Below, piece by piece: positions 7,862 through 29,568 of a stretch of DNA of 64,000 nucleotides. The stretch's first letter is position 1. The number at the start of each line of letters is the position of its first letter. Where the stretch lies: NCBI GenBank assembly GCA_963706025.1, contig CAVPLM010000005.1:32001-96000 (forward strand), written 5' to 3'. This DNA comes from an uncultured Actinomycetes bacterium (GTDB lineage: Bacteria; Actinomycetota; Thermoleophilia; RBG-16-64-13). The position numbers and the translations under genes were made by a program. The notes beneath the pieces are model-generated. The model was not told the origin of the DNA. It worked only from the letters and a program-made list of their open reading frames with translations, and did no database searches.

Positions 7862-8159
7862 ATCTCGACCTCCACCGGTAGGGCGCATTGACACTCCGCG
7901 AATCTGCCGCCTCTATACCCGCCGGAGCGTCTCGCCTAACGCGAGAATCAGCGACGGTTGTAGGACGGGGCCCGTCCGCTCCGCGGCACGATCACGGCAG
8001 CACTCTCTTCTCTCGGGGCGCGTTCTGCATAGCCACGATCCTGCGCCAAGTGGTGTCGTCGCCGGACAGAACAAGGCCGTAGTGCTCTCGAACATCGACC
8101 GCGACGGCGCGTAGGGCGGCATTCGCGGTGCCGGAACGGCGTGCCCCCGAAGGCTCCAC

Positions 8160-8900
8160 CTACGGACTCGGAGGAAGGTGGAATAGTTGGGTCACTAGCG
8201 GGCCATAGATCAGCCCCCAGAACAAGCGGATTACCAGGGCCAAGACGAAGCCGATAAGCCAGAAGAAGGGTATCGAGTGCCGTTGAGTACGAAGGGGCTC
8301 TTTCCATAGCCGTTCCTCATCGATGAATAGTAAGGGAAGGGCAATGAAGCTGGCATAAGCAATCGTATAGTATGCGACTACCAAGGGAGAAAGCCAGAAC
8401 AGGGGCGAGAGGAGCACGGAGGTCAGCACCCCGGTGAAGATGAGACCTTCGGTAAGGCTCTTCCCGCCGGCAAAGAAGAACACCTCCCGAAACGAGGCCT
8501 GGGTCTTCCTGATGACGAAGTACGAGACGAGGGCAATCGGAATGTAGTCGCCTTGTGCCAGGATGAAGGAAGGCAGGGTCTCAGCGTGTAGACCGCCGAT
8601 ACCTTCCCCAGTGACCGTCAGACTGACTTCGAACAGCATACCGAAGAGCCAAACAAGGAAGACGTACGCAAGCGGCGCGAGGCTCCTCGGGATGGGTATC
8701 TTCTTCCTGAGATCGTATTTCGCGTTCGCCCACATCCCTGCGAGCATCAAACCGTACAGAGCAATCTCCGAAAACCAGTAGGGCGACCTGGGCTCGGGAG
8801 TACCGCCGATGTTCAGAGCCGCGAAGAGTATGCCGGCAGCCATCCAGATCCATACGTTCCATATGCCGCGTCCGTAGAGCTGTGATGATCTCGATCCCAT
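8160..8900 (-). CDS. Polytopic membrane protein of unknown function, cassette gene
   Basis: 246 aa with multiple hydrophobic segments, lower GC than backbone; GTTGGGC core site at 8961-8955. Confidence 0.7.
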   Translation of the reverse strand: MGSRSSQLYGRGIWNVWIWMAAGILFAALNIGGTPEPRSPYWFSEIALYGLMLAGMWANAKYDLRKKIPIPRSLAPLAYVFLVWLFGMLFEVSLTVTGEGIGGLHAETLPSFILAQGDYIPIALVSYFVIRKTQASFREVFFFAGGKSLTEGLIFTGVLTSVLLSPLFWLSPLVVAYYTIAYASFIALPLLFIDEERLWKEPLRTQRHSIPFFWLIGFVLALVIRLFWGLIYGPLVTQLFHLPPSP

Positions 8901-8954
8901 GGGGAGTCTCCCGAGGCGGCCTCAGGTGGCTTCGCCTGTTACGACGCCTGCGCC

Positions 8955-9034
8955 GCCCAACGAATCAGCTCAGCGGCGCGGCGCTGTCTGCCGCGTTCGC
9001 CGGAGCGCTGAGCTGGGCCCCTTCGCGTTGGTAT
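8955..9034 (-). other. Degenerate attC-like site
   Basis: GCCCAAC at 8955 followed by inverted repeat CAGCTCAGCG...CGCTGAGCTG enclosing a GC-rich inner stem; the other core box is imperfect. Confidence 0.45.
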
Positions 9035-9452
9035 CTGGGAGGCGGCGGAGACCACGCATCGAATGCCTTCGCAGCTGCCGAAGAGGCAACAGATCGCGGG
9101 ACAGGTGAAGAGCGCCGTCGTCCAGGTATCGCACCATACAGACCGCCGTGGATGGACAGAGGGAGCGGAACTCGGCTGTACCTCGCACTCCGGTCGGTAC
9201 GCTCTCGCGCAAACAGACCGAGTATCCTCGGTGCCCGAAGAACTCTTTCGCTGTATCGTTTCCGAGCAATTCAACCCCGGCCGTCCCAACAAGCGCGTGC
9301 CCATCCCGGGCCAGCAGAAAATGCTCGATGTGTTCGCCAACGTCTTCATCGGGGAGACCATTTGCCGACAAGAGTTCTCGTACCATCGGGAGTTCATCTC
9401 GGCCGGCCATGGAGAAGGTGATTCCGTCCGATGGTGTTGATGTCTCGATCAT
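8970..9452 (-). pseudogene. ArsN2-like GNAT acetyltransferase with internal deletion
   Basis: LLSANGLP, LVGTAGVE, TAKEFF, TAEFRSLCPSTAVCM; the acetyl-CoA-binding R/QxxGxG segment between GVELLG and TAKEFF is absent. Confidence 0.6.
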
Positions 9453-9507
9453 GTGATCTCCAGCGTCATTCGCGGCCCGGCAGGGACATCGCGCCTGCAG
9501 CGAATCC

Positions 9508-10293
9508 TTATGCTTCGAACGTGATTTCGGCTTCCATGAAAGTGCAGGCCTGACCGTACAATAGAACCCGATCCCCTCTCAATTCGCATTGGATAGAACC
9601 ACCTCGCTTAGAAACCTGCAGAGCACTGAGCATAGATCGATTGAGACGCCCTGCCCAATACGGCGCGAGCTGGCAATGTGCGGCTCCGGTCACTGGGTCT
9701 TCATCAACTCCGAGTTTCGGGGCGAAGAAGCGGCTCACAAAGTCGACACTATTCCCTGGCGCGGTGATGATGACTCCGCGCAAATCAAGTTGCCGAAGCA
9801 AGGACATCTCAGGCGTGATGTTTCGCACGACTTCTTCGCTCGAGAACACGAGCAGATAATCGTCTGCGGCGAGCGTTTCCACGGGCGTAGCCCCAAAGGC
9901 CCTCAGTAGCGCCGGCGGTGGATCACAAGGCACCGGCCTGCGTCCGGGGAAGTCCATCTCAAGGTCCGAGCCGGAGCGTCTGACCGAGAGCACTCCGCTC
10001 CTGGTGAAGAACGAAATGCTGTCGGCTGTGTGGTTCAGGTGAGAGAAGAGGACATGTGCAGAGGCAAGGGTTGCATGCCCACAGAGGTCGACCTCCGAGA
10101 CCGGAGTGAACCACCGTAGTTCATACCCCTCGGCAACAGGCACGAAGAAAGCCGTTTCTGACAGATTGTTCTCTTCGGCAATAGCCTGAAGTAAGGAATC
10201 CGACAGCCACGCGGCCAAGGGAACCACGGCGGCGGGGTTTCCCGCGAAAGCACGCGAGGAGAATGCATCAATCTGATACTGCTTCAGTTTCAT
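9508..10293 (-). CDS. PhzF-family isomerase/epimerase, cassette gene
   Basis: DAFSSRAFAGNPAAV, SETAF, EVDLCGHATLA, EDPVTGAAH; GTTAGAT core site at 10319-10313 just upstream. Confidence 0.92.
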   Translation of the reverse strand: MKLKQYQIDAFSSRAFAGNPAAVVPLAAWLSDSLLQAIAEENNLSETAFFVPVAEGYELRWFTPVSEVDLCGHATLASAHVLFSHLNHTADSISFFTRSGVLSVRRSGSDLEMDFPGRRPVPCDPPPALLRAFGATPVETLAADDYLLVFSSEEVVRNITPEMSLLRQLDLRGVIITAPGNSVDFVSRFFAPKLGVDEDPVTGAAHCQLAPYWAGRLNRSMLSALQVSKRGGSIQCELRGDRVLLYGQACTFMEAEITFEA

Positions 10294-10352
10294 GGAACAC
10301 CGGCGACTTGAGATCTAACGTTGGGAACGCGGGCGGCGAAGCCATCTTCGAA

Positions 10353-10430
10353 GATCACAATCTTGTCGGGATTGACCTTCATCTCACCGAGCGAGACGAC
10401 GTCTTCCGAGAACTCCACTCGACGCGGCAT
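10353..10430 (-). pseudogene. N-terminal fragment of a Phd/YefM-type antitoxin
   Basis: MPRRVEFSEDVVSLGEMKVNPDKIV with GGAGG RBS; truncated. Confidence 0.4.
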
Positions 10431-10525
10431 GGCAGCCTCCAAGCAGCACGTGAGAACTGGTGCCGGTTGTATCACCTGATGACTCTGGGAGCAACACCTC
10501 TGACAATCATTCTGCGGCACACTCA

Positions 10526-10670
10526 CTAGAGAAACCGTTCCACCACGATTTCGTCGATGTCCCGGTCCGCGACCCTGAGGTGGCGCTCGGCGACGCCCTG
10601 GCGGCGATACGCGGCGGCCACGTAGGTGCCGAGGATGCCGACGTGGTCGACGCTCTTGTTCGGCTGATCA
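10526..10670 (-). pseudogene. GNAT acetyltransferase fragment
   Basis: DHVGILGTYVAAAYRRQGVA motif A without the rest of the fold. Confidence 0.45.
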
Positions 10671-11066
10671 TTCCTTGTAGTACTGCTTGAACTCCTCTGC
10701 GGGTTCCCGGTCTGAATAGATGTAGAGCATGACTCCGTTCGGGTCGAGAATGGCGAATCCGCGATCACCCCACGGATGATCTGCAAGCAGCATGACAGGT
10801 GTAAGGCCGCTGGCAGTCATACGGTCGCACTCGGCATCTACGTCTTCCACACAGAAGTTGTACATCAGGCCTGCCGGATTGAACGCCGGAGGGCCTTGCT
10901 CCTGCGGGGCTATAAACTGCAGTTCTGATGTCTCCTTTCCGAATCGGAGGTTCACGTACCACCCGCAATCGAACGTGACCTTGGCTCCGAAATACTTCAC
11001 GTAGAAATCGCACGACTCCTCCACCTTCGCCGTCGTGATGCATGCAGACAGTGTGTGTGCGATCAT
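10668..11066 (-). CDS. VOC/glyoxalase family protein
   Basis: FYVKYFG, DHPWGDRGFAILDPNG. Confidence 0.88.
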   Translation of the reverse strand: MIAHTLSACITTAKVEESCDFYVKYFGAKVTFDCGWYVNLRFGKETSELQFIAPQEQGPPAFNPAGLMYNFCVEDVDAECDRMTASGLTPVMLLADHPWGDRGFAILDPNGVMLYIYSDREPAEEFKQYYKE

Positions 11067-11296
11067 CAGTCCTTCTCCTCTTCCAGTTTGTGCAATTGCC
11101 TGATGTGTGAACCTGCATGTATCTTCTCCAAGTCGTCCAAAAAATGAGTATTGATGTGACGCACTGTGTGCCCTTCGCCTTCAAGGACCTGGTGCTGATC
11201 ATCCAGTTCCGCTCTCGATCCCCTTTGAAGTAGCAGAGTGCATTCCACTTCACGTCGCCCCATCATGCACTCAATTACTTCTGGATTAGGCCCCAT
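11066..11296 (-). CDS. Small hypothetical protein (possibly an internally deleted DinB-like gene)
   Basis: GTTAGGC (11313-11307), then AGGAGA RBS and ATG; H-x-x-x-H-I-R-Q C-terminal motif; stop overlaps the VOC start. Confidence 0.45.
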   Translation of the reverse strand: MGPNPEVIECMMGRREVECTLLLQRGSRAELDDQHQVLEGEGHTVRHINTHFLDDLEKIHAGSHIRQLHKLEEEKD

Positions 11297-11378
11297 TGTC
11301 TCTCCTGCCTAACGTCGAGCTTGATCCTCATTTAATCCGGCATCCACGCCGGACGAAACGTAGTGGTCAACGCTCTTT

Positions 11379-11777
11379 TTATGCATTTCTTGACACCCCG
11401 CAATTCAGACACGTGGGTCTGTGTACACAAATCAGTTCTCCACAAGCTGTACATTGCCAGCGGGCGTTTTCATTCCTGACGAACTGTCTGATTCCCACTT
11501 CCTCTATCTGCATCAGGTTCTCAATCATACTCATGCCGTATTTATCTCGATATCTCTTATCAAGGTTCTTTAATCGTGAACAGGGAAAGGAATCGCAGGA
11601 ATGATCGCAGTATTTCCATTTGCGCTTGTCACAGAATCTCAAAGTACACTTCCTGCTGCATTGAGTGTTGGGGGTGAGGCAGCCATCGCATTTGTTTCTA
11701 TCACGAACAAATCCTATGCAAAGGCGGCAGTTCATTCCGCAAGGAGCTATGTCGGATACCTTGGTGCGTGTTGTCAT
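11379..11777 (-). CDS. DUF3795-like Cys-rich protein, cassette gene
   Basis: IAPCGMNCRLC...CDGC...C...FPC...MIENL...IEEVG; clearly AT-richer than backbone; begins just after the complete attC. Confidence 0.8.
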   Translation of the reverse strand: MTTRTKVSDIAPCGMNCRLCIGFVRDRNKCDGCLTPNTQCSRKCTLRFCDKRKWKYCDHSCDSFPCSRLKNLDKRYRDKYGMSMIENLMQIEEVGIRQFVRNENARWQCTACGELICVHRPTCLNCGVSRNA

Positions 11778-11800
11778 TGAGTGTAGTACCTAAGTTCTGT

Positions 11801-11864
11801 GCCTAACGTTCAAGGTGAGGAGGGCGCCGCTTTCGGCGCGTCCCTCTCGATCGAAATGTTAGAA
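11801..11864 (-). other. Complete attC site (64 bp)
   Basis: Minus strand reads TTCTAAC ATTTC GATCGAGAGGGACGCGCCGAAAGCGGCGCCCTCCTCACCTTGAAC GTTAGGC, with R''/L''/L'/R' boxes and a central hairpin. Confidence 0.85.
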
Positions 11865-11892
11865 GGCAAATTGCCGAGCAGGGACCATTTGC

Positions 11893-12078
11893 CTCGTGAC
11901 CACGCAGACGCTCTACCACCTCGGTCGTGACTGGTATGGGACGCGGATGGACCTCGATTGGCAACCGGCGACCGAGACCGAAGCGACAGACATGTTCGCG
12001 AAGCACGGGCTGGTCGGGGATTTTTGGTCGCTGGTTTAGGAGGTGCCACCGAGCACTTCGAGCGAACGCGCAGACGGT
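11893..12078. repeat. 186-bp inverted repeat, copy A (reverse complement of 14693-14878)
   Basis: Sequence comparison; the same peptide strings appear in opposite-strand ORFs 11927+ / 14086- and 11810- / 14644+. Confidence 0.93.
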
Positions 12079-12158
12079 CGTCCCTCTGGAAGGCATCCTC
12101 GCGCAACTATCCGTGTCCGTCGGTAGTATCATGGGCAGTACTCTAGGAGGTACCATAG

Positions 12159-14538: not shown

Positions 14539-14544
14539 GGGCGA

Positions 14545-14700
14545 GTTCAGGCGAAGAGCTCCGCCGCCGAGCTCGCCGGCGATGTTTCCGTCGACCCAGC
14601 TGCCCGGACCGATGAGGAACACGCTCGCTGGCTCCTCGCCGAGATGCTCGAGTGGCACTGGCGCGAGCAGAAGGTGGTCTTCTGGGAGTACTACCGTCTG
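14545..14700 (+). pseudogene. Internal fragment of a TM0106-family nuclease/helicase
   Basis: DPAARTDEEHARWLLAEMLEWHWREQKVVFWEYYRL. Confidence 0.5.
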
Positions 14701-14878
14701 CGCGTTCGCTCGAAGTGCTCGGTGGCACCTCCTAAACCAGCGACCAAAAATCCCCGACCAGCCCGTGCTTCGCGAACATGTCTGTCGCTTCGGTCTCGGT
14801 CGCCGGTTGCCAATCGAGGTCCATCCGCGTCCCATACCAGTCACGACCGAGGTGGTAGAGCGTCTGCGTGGTCACGAG
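14693..14878. repeat. 186-bp inverted repeat, copy B
   Basis: Reverse complement of 11893-12078; includes the 3' end of the merB-like gene. Confidence 0.93.
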
Positions 14879-15391
14879 CGCACCGAGGCTCAGTCCTTCT
14901 GCATCCAGCCACGAGAACACGTCTGCTTCCGACCGGAACGCCGTCATGTTCGCTCAAGTGAAGACGATGTCGTCCCAGAACTGCTTCGCGGGAACGAGGA
15001 AGTGCACGATGGCGTCGCCTTCGGCCACCCCATCGCGCACCGTAAGCGTGATCGGCTCGCCGGTCGCCGGTGAATGCGTGTGGAGCGTGCCGTCGCCAAG
15101 AATCGCGAGGATCGACAGACCGTCCCACACGCAGTTGGCGAACCACGTTCGCTCGCCGATGGTGACAAGGAAATCCGAGTCGATACCCGAGAACGGATGC
15201 GCCATTCTCACGCGATCGGTGCCAGGAACTAGCACGAGGCGATGCTCGTCTGCCAATGAGTGAAGCGCCGCCGAGGCGTGGGACTCCGCCACACCGAGCA
15301 TGTCGCCGATGGCGGCGGCCGTCGGTGCCTGTCCGGTGTCGCGAAGCGTCTGGATCACGGTCGCCCGCACCTGCCGCTCGAACGAGTCCAT
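14732..15391 (-). CDS. MerB-like organomercurial lyase family protein, probable selenoprotein (TGA at 14956-14954 read as Sec; 219 aa)
   Basis: HTH N-terminus, MAHPFS, FANCVWDG, WDDIVFT*ANMTAFRSE; ORFs 14954..15391 and 14732..14947 are in the same frame; SECIS-like hairpin follows the TGA. Confidence 0.8.
14915..14951 (-). promoter_or_regulatory. Bacterial SECIS-like hairpin
   Basis: GAACAUG/CGUGUUC lower stem, UUCC/GGAA upper stem, GGUC apical loop starting 19 nt after the UGA. Confidence 0.7.
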
Positions 15392-15548
15392 ATGGTCTGC
15401 TCCTCCGAATCGGTCGACGGCAATGGTGCTAACAATACTTCGACAGTCTGCCGGAATCCGCCTTGAAATGACCCAAAAGCGTTTTCGTCGCGACTCCTCA
15501 GCCGCCTTTCCAGGGCTCGGGAGCGTCGAGACGCGCCCGGTGTGTGAT

Positions 15549-15637
15549 GCAGTTGAGCAGCAAGCTGCAGCCCGCTGCGAGTGGATCAGAGCGTAACGCG
15601 GAGGCCGTGGTTTGTCTGCTCGAACTGCTTGTTAGGC
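15549..15637 (-). other. attC site lacking its R' core
   Basis: GCCTAAC overlaps the toxin stop codon; L'' arm GCAGTTCGAGCAG pairs with CTGCTCAACTGC (one extrahelical base); no terminal GTTRRRY. Confidence 0.7.
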
Positions 15638-16748: not shown

Positions 16749-17820
16749 TCACCCGGCCTGGATCTCCTCCGCCATCTCCAGAAACCGGCAGAACGCATTG
16801 GCCAGCTGCATCTGGCGGGGCGTGCGGCAATCGACCTCGAAGAGACGCGGGCTTGCCACCAGGATGCAGGTCGCCCGCGCCCGCGAGGTGGCCACGTTCA
16901 GGCGGTTGAGGCTGTAGAGGAACTCCATGCCCCGGGGGGCCAGTTCGGGCGAGGAAGTCGCCAGCGAGAAGACGACCACCGGCGCTTCCTGCCCCTGGAA
17001 CCTGTCCACGGTGCCGACACGATGGCCCGGAAGACGAGTGGTCACATCGGCCACCTGGGCGTTGTAGGGGCAGACGATGAGCACCTGCTGGGCGTCCAGC
17101 GCACTCTCCTCGCCCTGGGCGTCGACCCAGAGCACGCCGTCCGTCAGCGATTCCACCGGCCGGCCGACGGCCTCCACCTCTTCGGGGGAGGAGTTCTGGT
17201 TGCCCTCGTGCTCCACAGGCAGGAACCAGAGCCCCGCGCCTGCAAGGGGCGTCGGCCCCCGCAGAGCCTGGTTCTCGAAACCCGGTCTCGACTCCAGCCG
17301 GCCCTCGCAGAAGAGCTCGGAGGTGAAGAGACAGATATCGGGATGCAGACGCCAGGTCTCGTCGAGAAAGAGTCCGCGATCGTCGGCGATGGTCTGACGG
17401 CCCTGAAGCAGGTGCTCGAGGGCCGACACTTCCGTGCCCTCGGGATGGCTGCCTTGTTGTGGTTGCTCCAGCTGCTGAGGGTCGCCGAGGAGGACGATGC
17501 TCTGTGCCGCCTGAGCGACCGCAATGACGTTCGCGAGCGACATCTGCCCGGCTTCGTCCACGAAGAGCACGTCCACGGCATCGCGGAAGTCAGGACGCGC
17601 CCACACCCAGGCAGTGCCGGCCGCCACCTGAGCCTGGCCAACGGCGACGCACTCGAGAAGGACGGCGTTGTCGGTCAGCTCGAGTATCTCCCGGTAGGTG
17701 TCCTCCGGATCGCCTTTGACCTTCTGGGCGCAGCACAGTTCGACTCCTTCGTCCGCCAGCCGGGCGATAGCGTTGATGTCATCGACGGTGCCGAACTTGC
17801 CTTCCACCCAATGAAGATCG
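16749..17820 (-). pseudogene. C-terminal SF1 (Upf1/DNA2-like) helicase part of a TM0106-family protein
   Basis: VDEAGQ, LGDPQQL, TWRLHP, PYNAQ, GTVDRFQGQE, RLNVATSRA; Walker A and N-terminal nuclease absent. Confidence 0.75.
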
Positions 17821-17913
17821 GCCTCGTCGCGAAGCTCAGAATCCTGGGGTGGGTAGCTGTAGCGGCAGAGCGGCGAGGACGAGCCTGGCGCGCATGCTCG
17901 GACAACGCGCGAA

Positions 17914-17937
17914 GTCGGCTGCACGCGCTTGTTCGAA
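17914..17937 (-). other. attC left half-site
   Basis: TTCGAAC AAGCG CGTGCAGCCGAC 12 nt after the toxin stop; right arm missing. Confidence 0.55.
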
Positions 17938-17949
17938 CTACACTCGCGA

Positions 17950-18246
17950 TTATCGGCGGCCACGCCAGTAGTAGGGTCGCTTCCGCTGATGCGCCACGGC
18001 CAGAATCCTAAGGGAGTTTTCACGAGTCTCGTAGATGAGGCTGTACGGGAACTTGGCGAGCACGAGCTTGCGAACGTCGTTAGTGACTTGCAGGGCAGCT
18101 CCGGGGTACTGCCGGATGCGCGCGAATCCGGTATCAACCTCATCTGTGAAGATCAATCCAAGACCAGGGCTCTCGCGCTCGTAGTAGTCGACGGCGTCAT
18201 TGAACTCACGACGAGCGTCAGGGTGAACCTGCAGCACCCGCGTCAC
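17950..18246 (-). CDS. ParE/RelE-family toxin
   Basis: HPDARREF..AVDYYE..PGLG, KFPYSLIY, ILAVAHQRKRPYYW. Confidence 0.9.
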   Translation of the reverse strand: MTRVLQVHPDARREFNDAVDYYERESPGLGLIFTDEVDTGFARIRQYPGAALQVTNDVRKLVLAKFPYSLIYETRENSLRILAVAHQRKRPYYWRGRR

Positions 18247-18467
18247 TTGAGGCGAGCCCTAGCCTCAGCGATGACCTGATCCGCTGGAATGGTCTCAACG
18301 AGGCCGGCATCGATCTCCGCGCTGCGGCGTAGCACCTCTTCGACCCACAACTGCTCGACCTCAGCCTCCGAGAGGGACTCAAGGCTGCTCAGGAGTTCGT
18401 GAGCCATGGAAGCACGATCCCTGGCACTGAGCATGAGGGCTTCGCGCATCAGTTCGTCAACGGTCAT
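18243..18467 (-). CDS. Putative addiction-module antidote (TIGR02574-like)
   Basis: [21 protein letters not shown]...W.EE..RR..EI..G; overlaps toxin. Confidence 0.85.
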
Positions 18468-18547
18468 ATCACACCTCGCAAACGCCGGAATGCTCTCGCC
18501 GATATTGTACCTCGCGCATCTGACGCCGAACCCCTACCGAGTGTTGG

Positions 18548-18716: not shown

Positions 18717-18812
18717 CTACAGAGCGTCAAGCGGGCTAGGGACAACCTGTCCGCCCCGGTTGAGCACATGGGTGTAGATCATGGTGGTACGCACATCGTT
18801 GTGGCCCAGCAG
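18717..18812 (-). pseudogene. intI: Integron integrase C-terminal remnant (31 aa)
   Basis: [31 protein letters not shown], the characteristic IntI box II and tail with catalytic His and Tyr. Confidence 0.88.
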
Positions 18813-18866
18813 TCGCCCCGTCGCCAGGCGGCGCGATCCGCCCCGTGCGCTAGAATACGTCCCCTC

Positions 18867-27711: not shown

Positions 27712-27912
27712 CCGGCGCGGGCGGCCGTCGGTGCCGCACCCAGCGGCTTGGCGGGCGCCGGTCGGACCCGATCGGCGCACCCGCCCGTGGGGGTCGCCTG
27801 GTCCGCGGCCGCTGCCGTGGCGCCCCGGGGTCCCTTTCGCCGCGGCAAGTCGGAAACAGGACAACCCAGGACGCGCGCCGGCCGGTTCCCCCTCGGCTAT
27901 ACTCCGTGGACT

Positions 27913-28383
27913 ATGAGACCCATCGGCATCAAGCTCATCGCGCAGAACAAGAAGGCCTACCACGACTATCACATCGAGGAGACGCTGGAGGCCGGCATCG
28001 CCCTGACCGGCACCGAGGTCAAGTCACTCCGCGCCGGTCGGGTCAACCTGCGCGACTCCTATGCCGCCGTGGAGAAGGGCGAGTTGTTCCTCGTCGGGAC
28101 CCACATCAGCCCCTACGAACAGGGGAACATCTTCAACCACGATCCTCTTCGGTCCCGTAAGCTGCTGGTCCACGCTCGGGAACTACGCCGCCTGTACGGG
28201 AAGGTGCAGGTGGCGGGCTACACCTTGGTGCCCACCAAGCTGTACTTCAAGGATGGTCGGATCAAGGTGGAGATCGGACTGGCCAAGGGCAAGACCACCT
28301 ACGACAAGCGCCAGACCTTGGCCAAGAAAGAAGCCCAGCGCGACATGGAGAGGGCTTTCCGCTCGCGCGATCGCGAGGAATAG
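27913..28383 (+). CDS. smpB: SsrA-binding protein
   Basis: [31 protein letters not shown]. Confidence 0.97.
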
Positions 28384-29204: not shown

Positions 29205-29568
29205 GGGGGCGACATGGTTTCGACGGGGCTCATGTCTGAGTTTGGGTAGCGAGCCGAGATCCCGGCCGTTCTCGTTAAACAGGCTGGAAAACAACAATTG
29301 CCAAACCTGAATTGGCTCTGGCCGCTTAGTCTGACTAAGACTTAAGCGCCTGTCGCGCCTCCCGTGCCTGCCGGGGAGGGCCGCGGCATAAACCAGGCGG
29401 GCTTACTCTCGGCGAGCACCGCCGGCGTCGGGGGGACATTCAGGTGGTTGGCCGGACGCACCCAGCTCCTACGGGGGCGCGAGGCGAGAAACGTAGTAGG
29501 GGCTACGCTCGTAGAAACCTGGGCCAGACGGGTTTCGGACGGGGGTTCGATTCCCCCCGCCTCCACCA
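29205..29568 (+). ncRNA. ssrA: tmRNA; tag peptide AKPELALAA (29300-29329)
   Basis: GGGGGCGAC...TTCGAC 5' end, GGGTTCGATTCCC...CTCCACCA 3' end, tag ending LALAA, near smpB. Confidence 0.96.

Follow-up and report, generated by a model that had tools for sequence, protein, structure and literature searches.

Does the minus strand at positions 14732..15391 of the window carry two small genes, or a single gene for a selenoprotein that is read through an internal UGA codon? The window is the whole 64,000-nucleotide stretch analysed here, taken from contig CAVPLM010000005.1 of an uncultured Actinomycetes bacterium. Two open reading frames (ORFs) had been called separately at this locus, one of 145 amino acids (15391-14954, stop included) and one of 71 amino acids (14947-14732). 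The original prediction was that they form one hidden selenoprotein gene of the MerB family within an integron array. We followed the reading frame, the RNA signal, the protein fold and the gene cassette. The results indicated that 14732..15391 is almost certainly a real selenoprotein gene, with selenocysteine (Sec, U) predicted at codon 146 by sequence comparison.

The reading frame and the conserved UGA codon

The two ORFs lay in one frame with TGA GCG AAC as the spacer. The minus strand from 15391 to 14735 was a single frame, and it was interrupted only by the TGA at 14956-14954. When this TGA was translated as U, the product had 219 residues, read ...FWDDIVFT-U-ANMTAFRSE... and terminated at the TAG at 14734-14732. 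The junction WDDIVFT-U-ANMTAFRSE, which had been claimed for the joined ORFs, was thus reproduced. The complete gene consisted of 219 codons and the TAG stop. A Shine-Dalgarno-like GGAGGAG was located 8 nt upstream of the ATG (15400..15406, minus strand) and was kept in the upstream alignment. The MerB profile PF03243 matched residues 67-187 over its full length (profile positions 1-126 of 126) with 78.8 bits and an E-value of 4.6e-22, where the gathering threshold is 27 bits. This match spanned the UGA.

The same truncation was observed in database entries. A homology search gave 604 homologs at E <= 0.001, and 108 of the best 120 were exactly 145 amino acids long, covering 66% of the query. 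Five of the 145-aa homologs were inspected, and all of them terminated in ...FT. One 145-aa member, P0075, is named 'alkylmercury lyase family protein' in RefSeq. At the DNA level, a scan of one genome per species gave 219 relatives, from which 80 loci were kept for comparison; the labels of their metagenome-assembled genomes included Acidobacteriota, Actinomycetota, Gemmatimonadota, Chloroflexota, NC10 and others. In 76 of the 80 loci (74, plus L048 and L069), the column held TGA and the frame went on beyond it with conserved sequence. As for the remaining four, L083 had Cys at the column and no FRSE motif, L073 ran into the end of its contig, and the copies in L074 and L077 were broken. When the window was added to the 76 loci, TGA occupied the column in all 77 complete genes, which came from many phyla, and it was never replaced by TAA or TAG. 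The terminal stops of these 77 genes were TGA in 45, TAG in 28 and TAA in 4. Beyond the UGA, 73 codons were conserved in frame, and W185, Y186, R189, F215 and W216 were invariant.

A profile search was performed against 1.84 billion representatives clustered at 50% identity. At E <= 0.001 there were 3993 hits, and 332 of them reached E <= 1e-30. The Sec/Cys column was tallied in the best 150 of the 3993 hits. Cys was found in 71 of these, 69 sequences ended exactly there, two had Trp, and eight had other residues or gaps; one Gly row was seen among the 150. In addition, the database entries P0002 and P0009 showed W at the column. Homologs with Trp or without a conserved Cys had been named beforehand as evidence that would speak against Sec, and the column was found to hold TGA in the complete genes and Cys in L083 and in the 71 representatives. 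It had also been asked whether reads carry TGC or TGG in place of TGA. Contigs of relatives that span the UGA (X1 record 1; X2 records 3 and 4) listed no variant at the codon, which was a weak test; 13 differences were not displayed.

The SECIS hairpin and the Sec machinery

The RNA immediately after the UGA was analysed. A Sec insertion sequence (SECIS) element was assigned to 14915..14951 on the minus strand from the RNAfold structure, from comparative covariation and from synonymous-site constraint on the FRSE codons. The RNAfold centroid of 71 nt around the UGA showed a lower stem GAACAUG/CGUGUUC (14951-14945 with 14921-14915), an upper stem UUCC/GGAA and a loop GGUC beginning 19 nt past the UGA. 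This was the same fold as that described in the original prediction. Its upper stem and loop were conserved with covariation. However, the lower stem was not a feature of the whole family; it was specific to close relatives and was paired in 45% of cells family-wide.

The comparative evidence came from a gapless alignment of 75 genes over 54 nt starting at the UGA, with nucleotides counted from the U of the UGA. Positions 19-30 were nearly invariant as UUCC GGUC GGAA, which are the Phe-Arg-Ser-Glu codons. An 8-bp helix (nt 15-22/27-34) that closes the GGUC loop was paired in 87.8%, compared to at most 59.1% when the helix was slid. Compensatory change was observed at six of its eight pairs, and none of 500 shuffles matched any of these measures. 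In the window, the conserved apical hairpin at 14941-14925 was composed of G16-C32, C17-G31, a bulged G18, UUCC/GGAA and the loop GGUC, so that the stem was kept by means of a one-base bulge. The E. coli fdhF element has a G-rich tetraloop about 19 nt past its UGA, with a bulge beneath it. The choice of synonymous codons showed the same constraint as the pairing. The Arg site was CGG in 74 of the 77 genes, compared to 31% of the Arg codons elsewhere in the same genes; likewise, TCG was used at 70 of 77 Ser sites versus 42%, and GAA at 56 of 77 Glu sites versus 31%. The residues flanking FRSE co-varied (Ala...Gly, Gly...Pro/Ala, Leu...Glu), as the stem requires. For selenium biology, it is of interest that so compact a SECIS imposes the peptide Phe-Arg-Ser-Glu through its stem.

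We also looked for the genes needed to decode Sec in the host assembly. The tRNA-Sec gene selC was found with 79.1 bits, and ARAGORN called it SeC with the anticodon tca. SelA was found with 449.7 bits, the SelB wing domain with 65.8 bits, and SelD with 388 bits and one in-frame TGA. The search for selA, selB, selC and selD that had been recommended thus recovered all four from the genome. SelA was also found in all five of the other family-carrying genomes that were tested. The selD gene is located outside the window (G000:C5:742679-743602, minus strand; L011), and its in-frame TGA meant that selenophosphate synthetase is itself a selenoprotein here. In the genome of the Cys-form relative L083, the selA match (G001:C10:114434-115482) was split over two frames (model positions 1-221 and 220-366), owing to a frameshift or an assembly error. 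By analogy with Sec decoding as established in bacteria, the hairpin that starts about 13 nt past the UGA would be bound by SelB together with its Sec-tRNA(Sec). Once the hairpin is bound, UGA-146 would be decoded as selenocysteine and not as a stop.

The MerB-type fold and the predicted activity

A sequence search of the PDB found MerB2 (5c17, E 2.1e-07) and MerB chains. In the alignment to 5c17 and 3f2g, residue 146 (UGA codon, 14954..14956, minus strand) was paired with Cys159 of MerB. Cys87 (15131..15133) and Asp90 (15124-15122) of the FANCVWD motif, also on the minus strand, were paired with Cys96 and Asp99. The alignment therefore agreed with two earlier proposals, namely that FANCVWD holds the first catalytic pair and that the UGA takes the place of the second catalytic Cys of MerB. 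C87, W89, D90 and Thr145 were invariant in 40 of 40 aligned sequences (alignment A5), and the Cys-Asp-Sec triad was invariant among the 39 Sec-form sequences aligned. An AlphaFold2 model built with 40 family sequences as input gave a single compact fold with a pLDDT of 97.5 and a pTM of 0.93. The 219-aa protein had a helical, winged-helix-like region at its N-terminus and a MerB core. In a Foldseek search against the PDB, ranks 1-11 were all MerB or MerB2, with E-values from 8.8e-10 to 3.1e-06, and the best match was 5c17 with TM scores of 0.70/0.74.

Compared to MerB and MerB2 (PDB 3f0o, 3f0p, 5c17), the window protein had the same fold (TM 0.58-0.74), the Cys-x-x-Asp motif and a second ligand at the aligned position. 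However, it was only 16-24% identical to them, had Sec in place of Cys159, had no equivalent of Cys160, and occurred with neither a mer operon nor MerA. These results suggested that the 219-residue protein very probably has the fold of MerB and an active site of the same type. For the locus as a whole, the best explanation is, with good confidence, one gene that encodes a selenoprotein of 219 residues with the MerB fold.

The homology with MerB (Cys96, Asp99 and Cys159) suggests an active site formed by Cys87, Asp90 and Sec146. Protonolysis of a carbon-metal bond would be the most likely chemistry. In such a reaction, the metal of an organomercurial or of another organometal(loid) might be held by the selenolate and the thiolate, while Asp90 would protonate the leaving carbon. 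Since the host lacks MerA, cellular thiols would have to take over the metal product by exchange. We regard organometal lyase activity as somewhat favoured, as a prediction. That methylmercury or organomercurials are the natural substrate is a more tentative proposal, which we hold at rather less than even strength.

A Sec-containing relative of MerB is already known. In the available part of the preprint of Haft and Gwadz (bioRxiv 10.1101/2022.07.06.499078), SaoL is described as a selenoprotein resembling MerB; it has a CU motif, is truncated in databases and is encoded in a nine-gene SAO locus of anaerobes. It was the only MerB-like selenoprotein listed in the available portions of two reviews (PMC9312934; AEM 2026, PMC13188914), and in the latter it is linked to NF040728 and to the CU motif. 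As far as it was available, PMC1382264 mentions only a selenocysteine lyase cassette. A description of a T-U clade or of a Sec-encoding integron cassette was not found in the literature searched, which was a part of the literature with supplements outside it. To judge from the available text on SaoL, the window protein resembles it in the MerB fold, in Sec at the ligand equivalent to Cys159 and in having rare Cys-form relatives. However, NF040728 (NCBIfam release 20.0) gave no match at E <= 1, and the Cys-Sec of SaoL is Thr-Sec (FT-U-AN) in the window protein. The available text places SaoL in its nine-gene neighbourhood in strict anaerobes, whereas the window family is spread over many phyla and is sometimes an integron cassette. 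The neighbours in the window are toxin-antitoxin and unrelated genes; the Sao hidden Markov models were not applied to the neighbours.

The neighbours were compared as ORFs within 3.5 kb at 76 loci, and none was conserved; the largest cluster was present at 9 of the 76 loci. The clusters that could be named by Pfam were a histidine kinase, a Cu/Zn superoxide dismutase, a radical SAM protein, a GlmS-like amidotransferase and a sigma-70 factor, which are housekeeping or lineage-specific. Identity with SaoL was ruled out by the lack of an NF040728 hit, by T-U in place of C-U and by the lack of a conserved neighbourhood. The earlier statement that Sec-containing MerB-like families have been described was right in that SaoL is one of them, but the window protein is not SaoL. 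It represents a second Sec-bearing MerB-like clade, which is distinct from SaoL and is sometimes an integron cassette.

Other explanations of the UGA were weighed against these data. The locus could be a pseudogene, either a MerB-like gene that a nonsense mutation has inactivated or a pair of small genes unrelated to each other. The gene callers did split it into ORFs of 145 and 71 amino acids, the surrounding array is decayed and contains a second, shortened copy of the 3' end of the gene (see below), and L074 and L077 are truly broken. However, decay is hard to reconcile with the identical TGA in 77 of 77 complete genes of many phyla, with 73 downstream codons kept in frame and their five invariant residues, and with a Pfam domain and a confidently modelled fold that extend across the stop. 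This explanation was considered very improbable. It was equally improbable that the UGA is read as Trp or Gly through an alternative code, or is passed by unspecific read-through. The W in P0002 and P0009 pointed to such a reading, as did the two rows with W and the one with G in the 150 best representatives. However, these rows look like TGA translated under another code (TGA=Trp). P0002 runs beyond the normal C-terminus of the family via a further W, as we would expect from a pipeline that translates in this way. In addition, TGA is also the commonest true terminator of the same genes (45 of 77), the alternative residue is Cys and not Trp, a covarying SECIS follows the codon, and the host has the full Sec machinery. 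Some results did not favour the selenoprotein gene itself. The hairpin of the window copy was no more stable than expected by chance (z = +0.84; 159 of 200 shuffles folded at least as well), so the sequence alone did not prove the hairpin and its support was comparative. An Rfam scan of 14700-15100 (E <= 10) gave no SECIS family, only a chance riboswitch-like hit, and the search of sequencing runs listed no RNA runs containing the stretch, only DNA runs with a small share.

A more serious alternative concerns the activity. The protein could be a real selenoprotein but not an organomercurial lyase, acting instead on another organometal(loid) (As, Sn, Pb, Sb), in transfer or sequestering of metal or selenium, or in a redox role. 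In the case of the curated NCBIfam MerB models, the scores were far under the cut-offs (23.1 vs 193 bits for NF009710; 20.2 vs 200 bits for NF033555). This meant that the protein is not an ortholog of characterised MerB and that it may have a different substrate. One MerB-family gene was found in the genome, no MerA reached the cut-off (best 371 vs 454 bits), and no mer gene was a conserved neighbour. The absence of a mer operon had been predicted, and without MerA and mer neighbours a classical organomercurial detoxification would be incomplete. An Hg-Se bond could also slow the release of the product. In many full-length Cys-form relatives (for example P0128, P0129 and P0133), Cys replaces Asp at the column equivalent to Asp99, which gives a three-Cys variant of the MerB active site; this indicated that the active-site chemistry varies within the family. 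The same caveat is given for SaoL in the available part of the preprint of Haft and Gwadz (bioRxiv 10.1101/2022.07.06.499078). On the other hand, the Cys-Asp-Sec triad is invariant in the 39 aligned Sec-form sequences and the fold is that of MerB. To our knowledge, the activity of MerB is the only one that has been biochemically characterised on this fold, and we counted this against a different role. Such a role was judged a minority possibility, although one of real weight.

If the carbon-metal lyase reading is right, the clade would be invisible to merB surveys. Mercury-cycling surveys that require all three catalytic residues would presumably discard proteins truncated before the third. 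A Sec clade across many phyla could thus be an uncounted reservoir of organometal-cleaving capacity. We suggest, tentatively and as the less likely side of an open balance, that this is a second Sec-dependent clade of MerB-type carbon-metal lyases, one that had not been recognised before. In that case it would be common among bacteria of soil and sediment, systematically shortened to 145 residues in public annotation, possibly able to degrade organomercurials such as methylmercury without a mer operon, and the first selenoprotein gene seen as an integron cassette. A large family with Sec at a metal-ligand position would offer selenium biology a natural comparison of Sec with Cys. An annotation rule could be built on a 145-aa PF03243 protein that ends in ...FT and has TGA and the FRSE codons next to it, and with this rule hundreds of entries would be corrected.

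Gene cassettes and the decayed array

The integron context was analysed in the relatives and in the window. In some Actinomycetota and in one NC10 genome, the gene is an integron gene cassette. In L026, the gene was flanked by two near-identical attC sites of 87 nt, and the upstream one ended with GTTAGCC 39 nt ahead of the start codon. Nine attC sites from L016, L023 and L026 were aligned, and compensatory change was seen at 11 of the 19 pairs predicted. With these nine sites as input, a covariance model gave 44 matches at E <= 0.01, the nine included, in 7 of the 80 loci. There were six matches in L016, four in L017, two in L019, nine in L023, six in L025, 13 and one opposite-strand echo in L026, and three in L077. 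All matches except the echo in L026 were on the strand of the gene. In five of the 80 loci (L016, L017, L023, L025 and L026), an attC began within about 10 nt of the stop of the selenoprotein gene, with E-values from 3.7e-09 to 1.1e-23. A truncated IntI-like gene was located directly upstream of the gene in L016, on the same strand.

The window showed remains of the same arrangement. The inferred 5' boundary of the cassette (R' core) is a GTTAGCA at 15427..15433 on the minus strand, 42 nt upstream of the ATG, and the homology of the window with L016, L017 and L018 begins here. The core in relatives was GTTAGCA at -43 (L016) and -36 (L019) and GTTAGCC at -39 (L025 and L026), and in L026 this position was the R' end of the preceding attC. 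A boundary core of the GTTRRRY type was thus common to the window and to relatives in different genomic contexts. Alignment with L015-L017 showed that the attC of the selenoprotein cassette itself is a stub at 14689..14727 (minus strand). Only its 5' half (about 38 nt) was left, its R'' was changed from AAC to ACC and the 3' half was lost; with the covariance model it scored 7.4 bits (E 7.7), which is not significant alone. The attC of the upstream Phd/ParE cassette at 15540..15637 (minus strand) was the only significant site in the window (23.7 bits, E 3.9e-05). The ParE stop lies inside its R'' box, and its R' is degenerate.

An integron integrase was also present as a remnant. A C-terminal piece followed by a stop was found at 18717..18815 on the minus strand, adjoining the 5' region of lepA (TIGR02249 positions 284-315, E 1.5e-10). 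The match itself covered 32 model positions at C5:50720-50815 (window 18720-18815) on the strand of the cassettes, and the rest of intI was missing. The original claim of a cassette array was partly borne out by the attC at 15540..15637, the intI remnant and the intact cassettes of the relatives. However, the array in the window is decayed and the cassette's own attC is a stub. The window contains the fossil of a selenoprotein cassette in a decayed chromosomal array and not an active integron. With the integrase reduced to about 32 residues and the attC to a stub, the cassette is probably immobile here.

These features were similar to those of sedentary chromosomal integrons and CALIN-type arrays. 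The gene of the relatives has GTTAG-type cores and attC sites of 84-90 nt with R/L boxes and extrahelical bases, and the window has toxin-antitoxin cassettes, small genes on the same strand and the intI remnant. The intI remnant is on the cassette strand, as in L016; in class 1 integrons, intI is divergent from the cassettes. Since the SECIS lies within the coding sequence, the cassette would work only in recipients that already decode Sec. For mobile elements, this would be a recoded gene carried as a cassette whose usefulness depends on the translation machinery of the recipient.

Scans of the window that did not use the covariance model were less sensitive. When the strict consensus of attC (RYYYAAC ... 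GTTRRRY, ends paired) was scanned for, no sites were found. Two relaxed fold-based scans gave 7 and 3 sites, compared to 5-12 and 2-8 in shuffled sequences, so there was no excess. These crude scans missed sites that were found later by the covariance model. The motif GCCTAACG (1 mismatch) was not enriched window-wide (27 vs 43 expected), and its three exact copies were all on the plus strand within 7934-11808. The motif AACAAGCGCWTC (2 mismatches) was enriched (21 vs 6.6 expected), but it was scattered across housekeeping genes and was not used as evidence.

An inverted duplicate of 207 nt (96%; inverted repeat I1) was found at 11893..12099 on the plus strand and pairs with 14672-14878. It contains the last 49 or so codons of the selenoprotein gene and 60 nt downstream with the attC stub, and it has neither the UGA nor the SECIS. 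A well-formed hairpin resembling an attC (11801-11870) lies directly ahead of this copy and a Phd antitoxin gene lies beyond it. The copy suggests duplication of the cassette or rearrangement within the array.

The interval between murJ and the M23 peptidase (to 7158) on one side and lepA on the other contained small, mostly minus-strand genes. They included DUF6855, PhzF-like and glyoxalase genes, pairs of Phd and ParE, a DUF4143 ATPase and a truncated helicase. From 8 to 12 kb, the GC content fell to 0.51-0.60. The short stretch 14540-14700 on the plus strand, which separates the DUF4143 and selenoprotein genes, translates as ...EEHARWLLAEMLEWHWREQKVVFWEYYRL... and resembles part of a larger protein. 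With the helicase at 16749-18143 (minus strand), which is truncated at its 5' end, it suggested that several genes in the array are broken. Just downstream of the integrase remnant and on the same strand, an antitoxin-like ORF (18243-18533) and a ParE/RelE-like ORF (17950-18258) were named from their sequence alone. On another contig, G000:C3:452293-452937 (plus strand; L095) matched TIGR02249 above the cut-off with 319.6 bits at positions 101-315, in a frame of 237 aa that may be short at the N-terminus. Finally, an ordinary tmRNA gene with the tag AKPELALAA was located at 29205-29568 on the plus strand, beside smpB (27748-28383).

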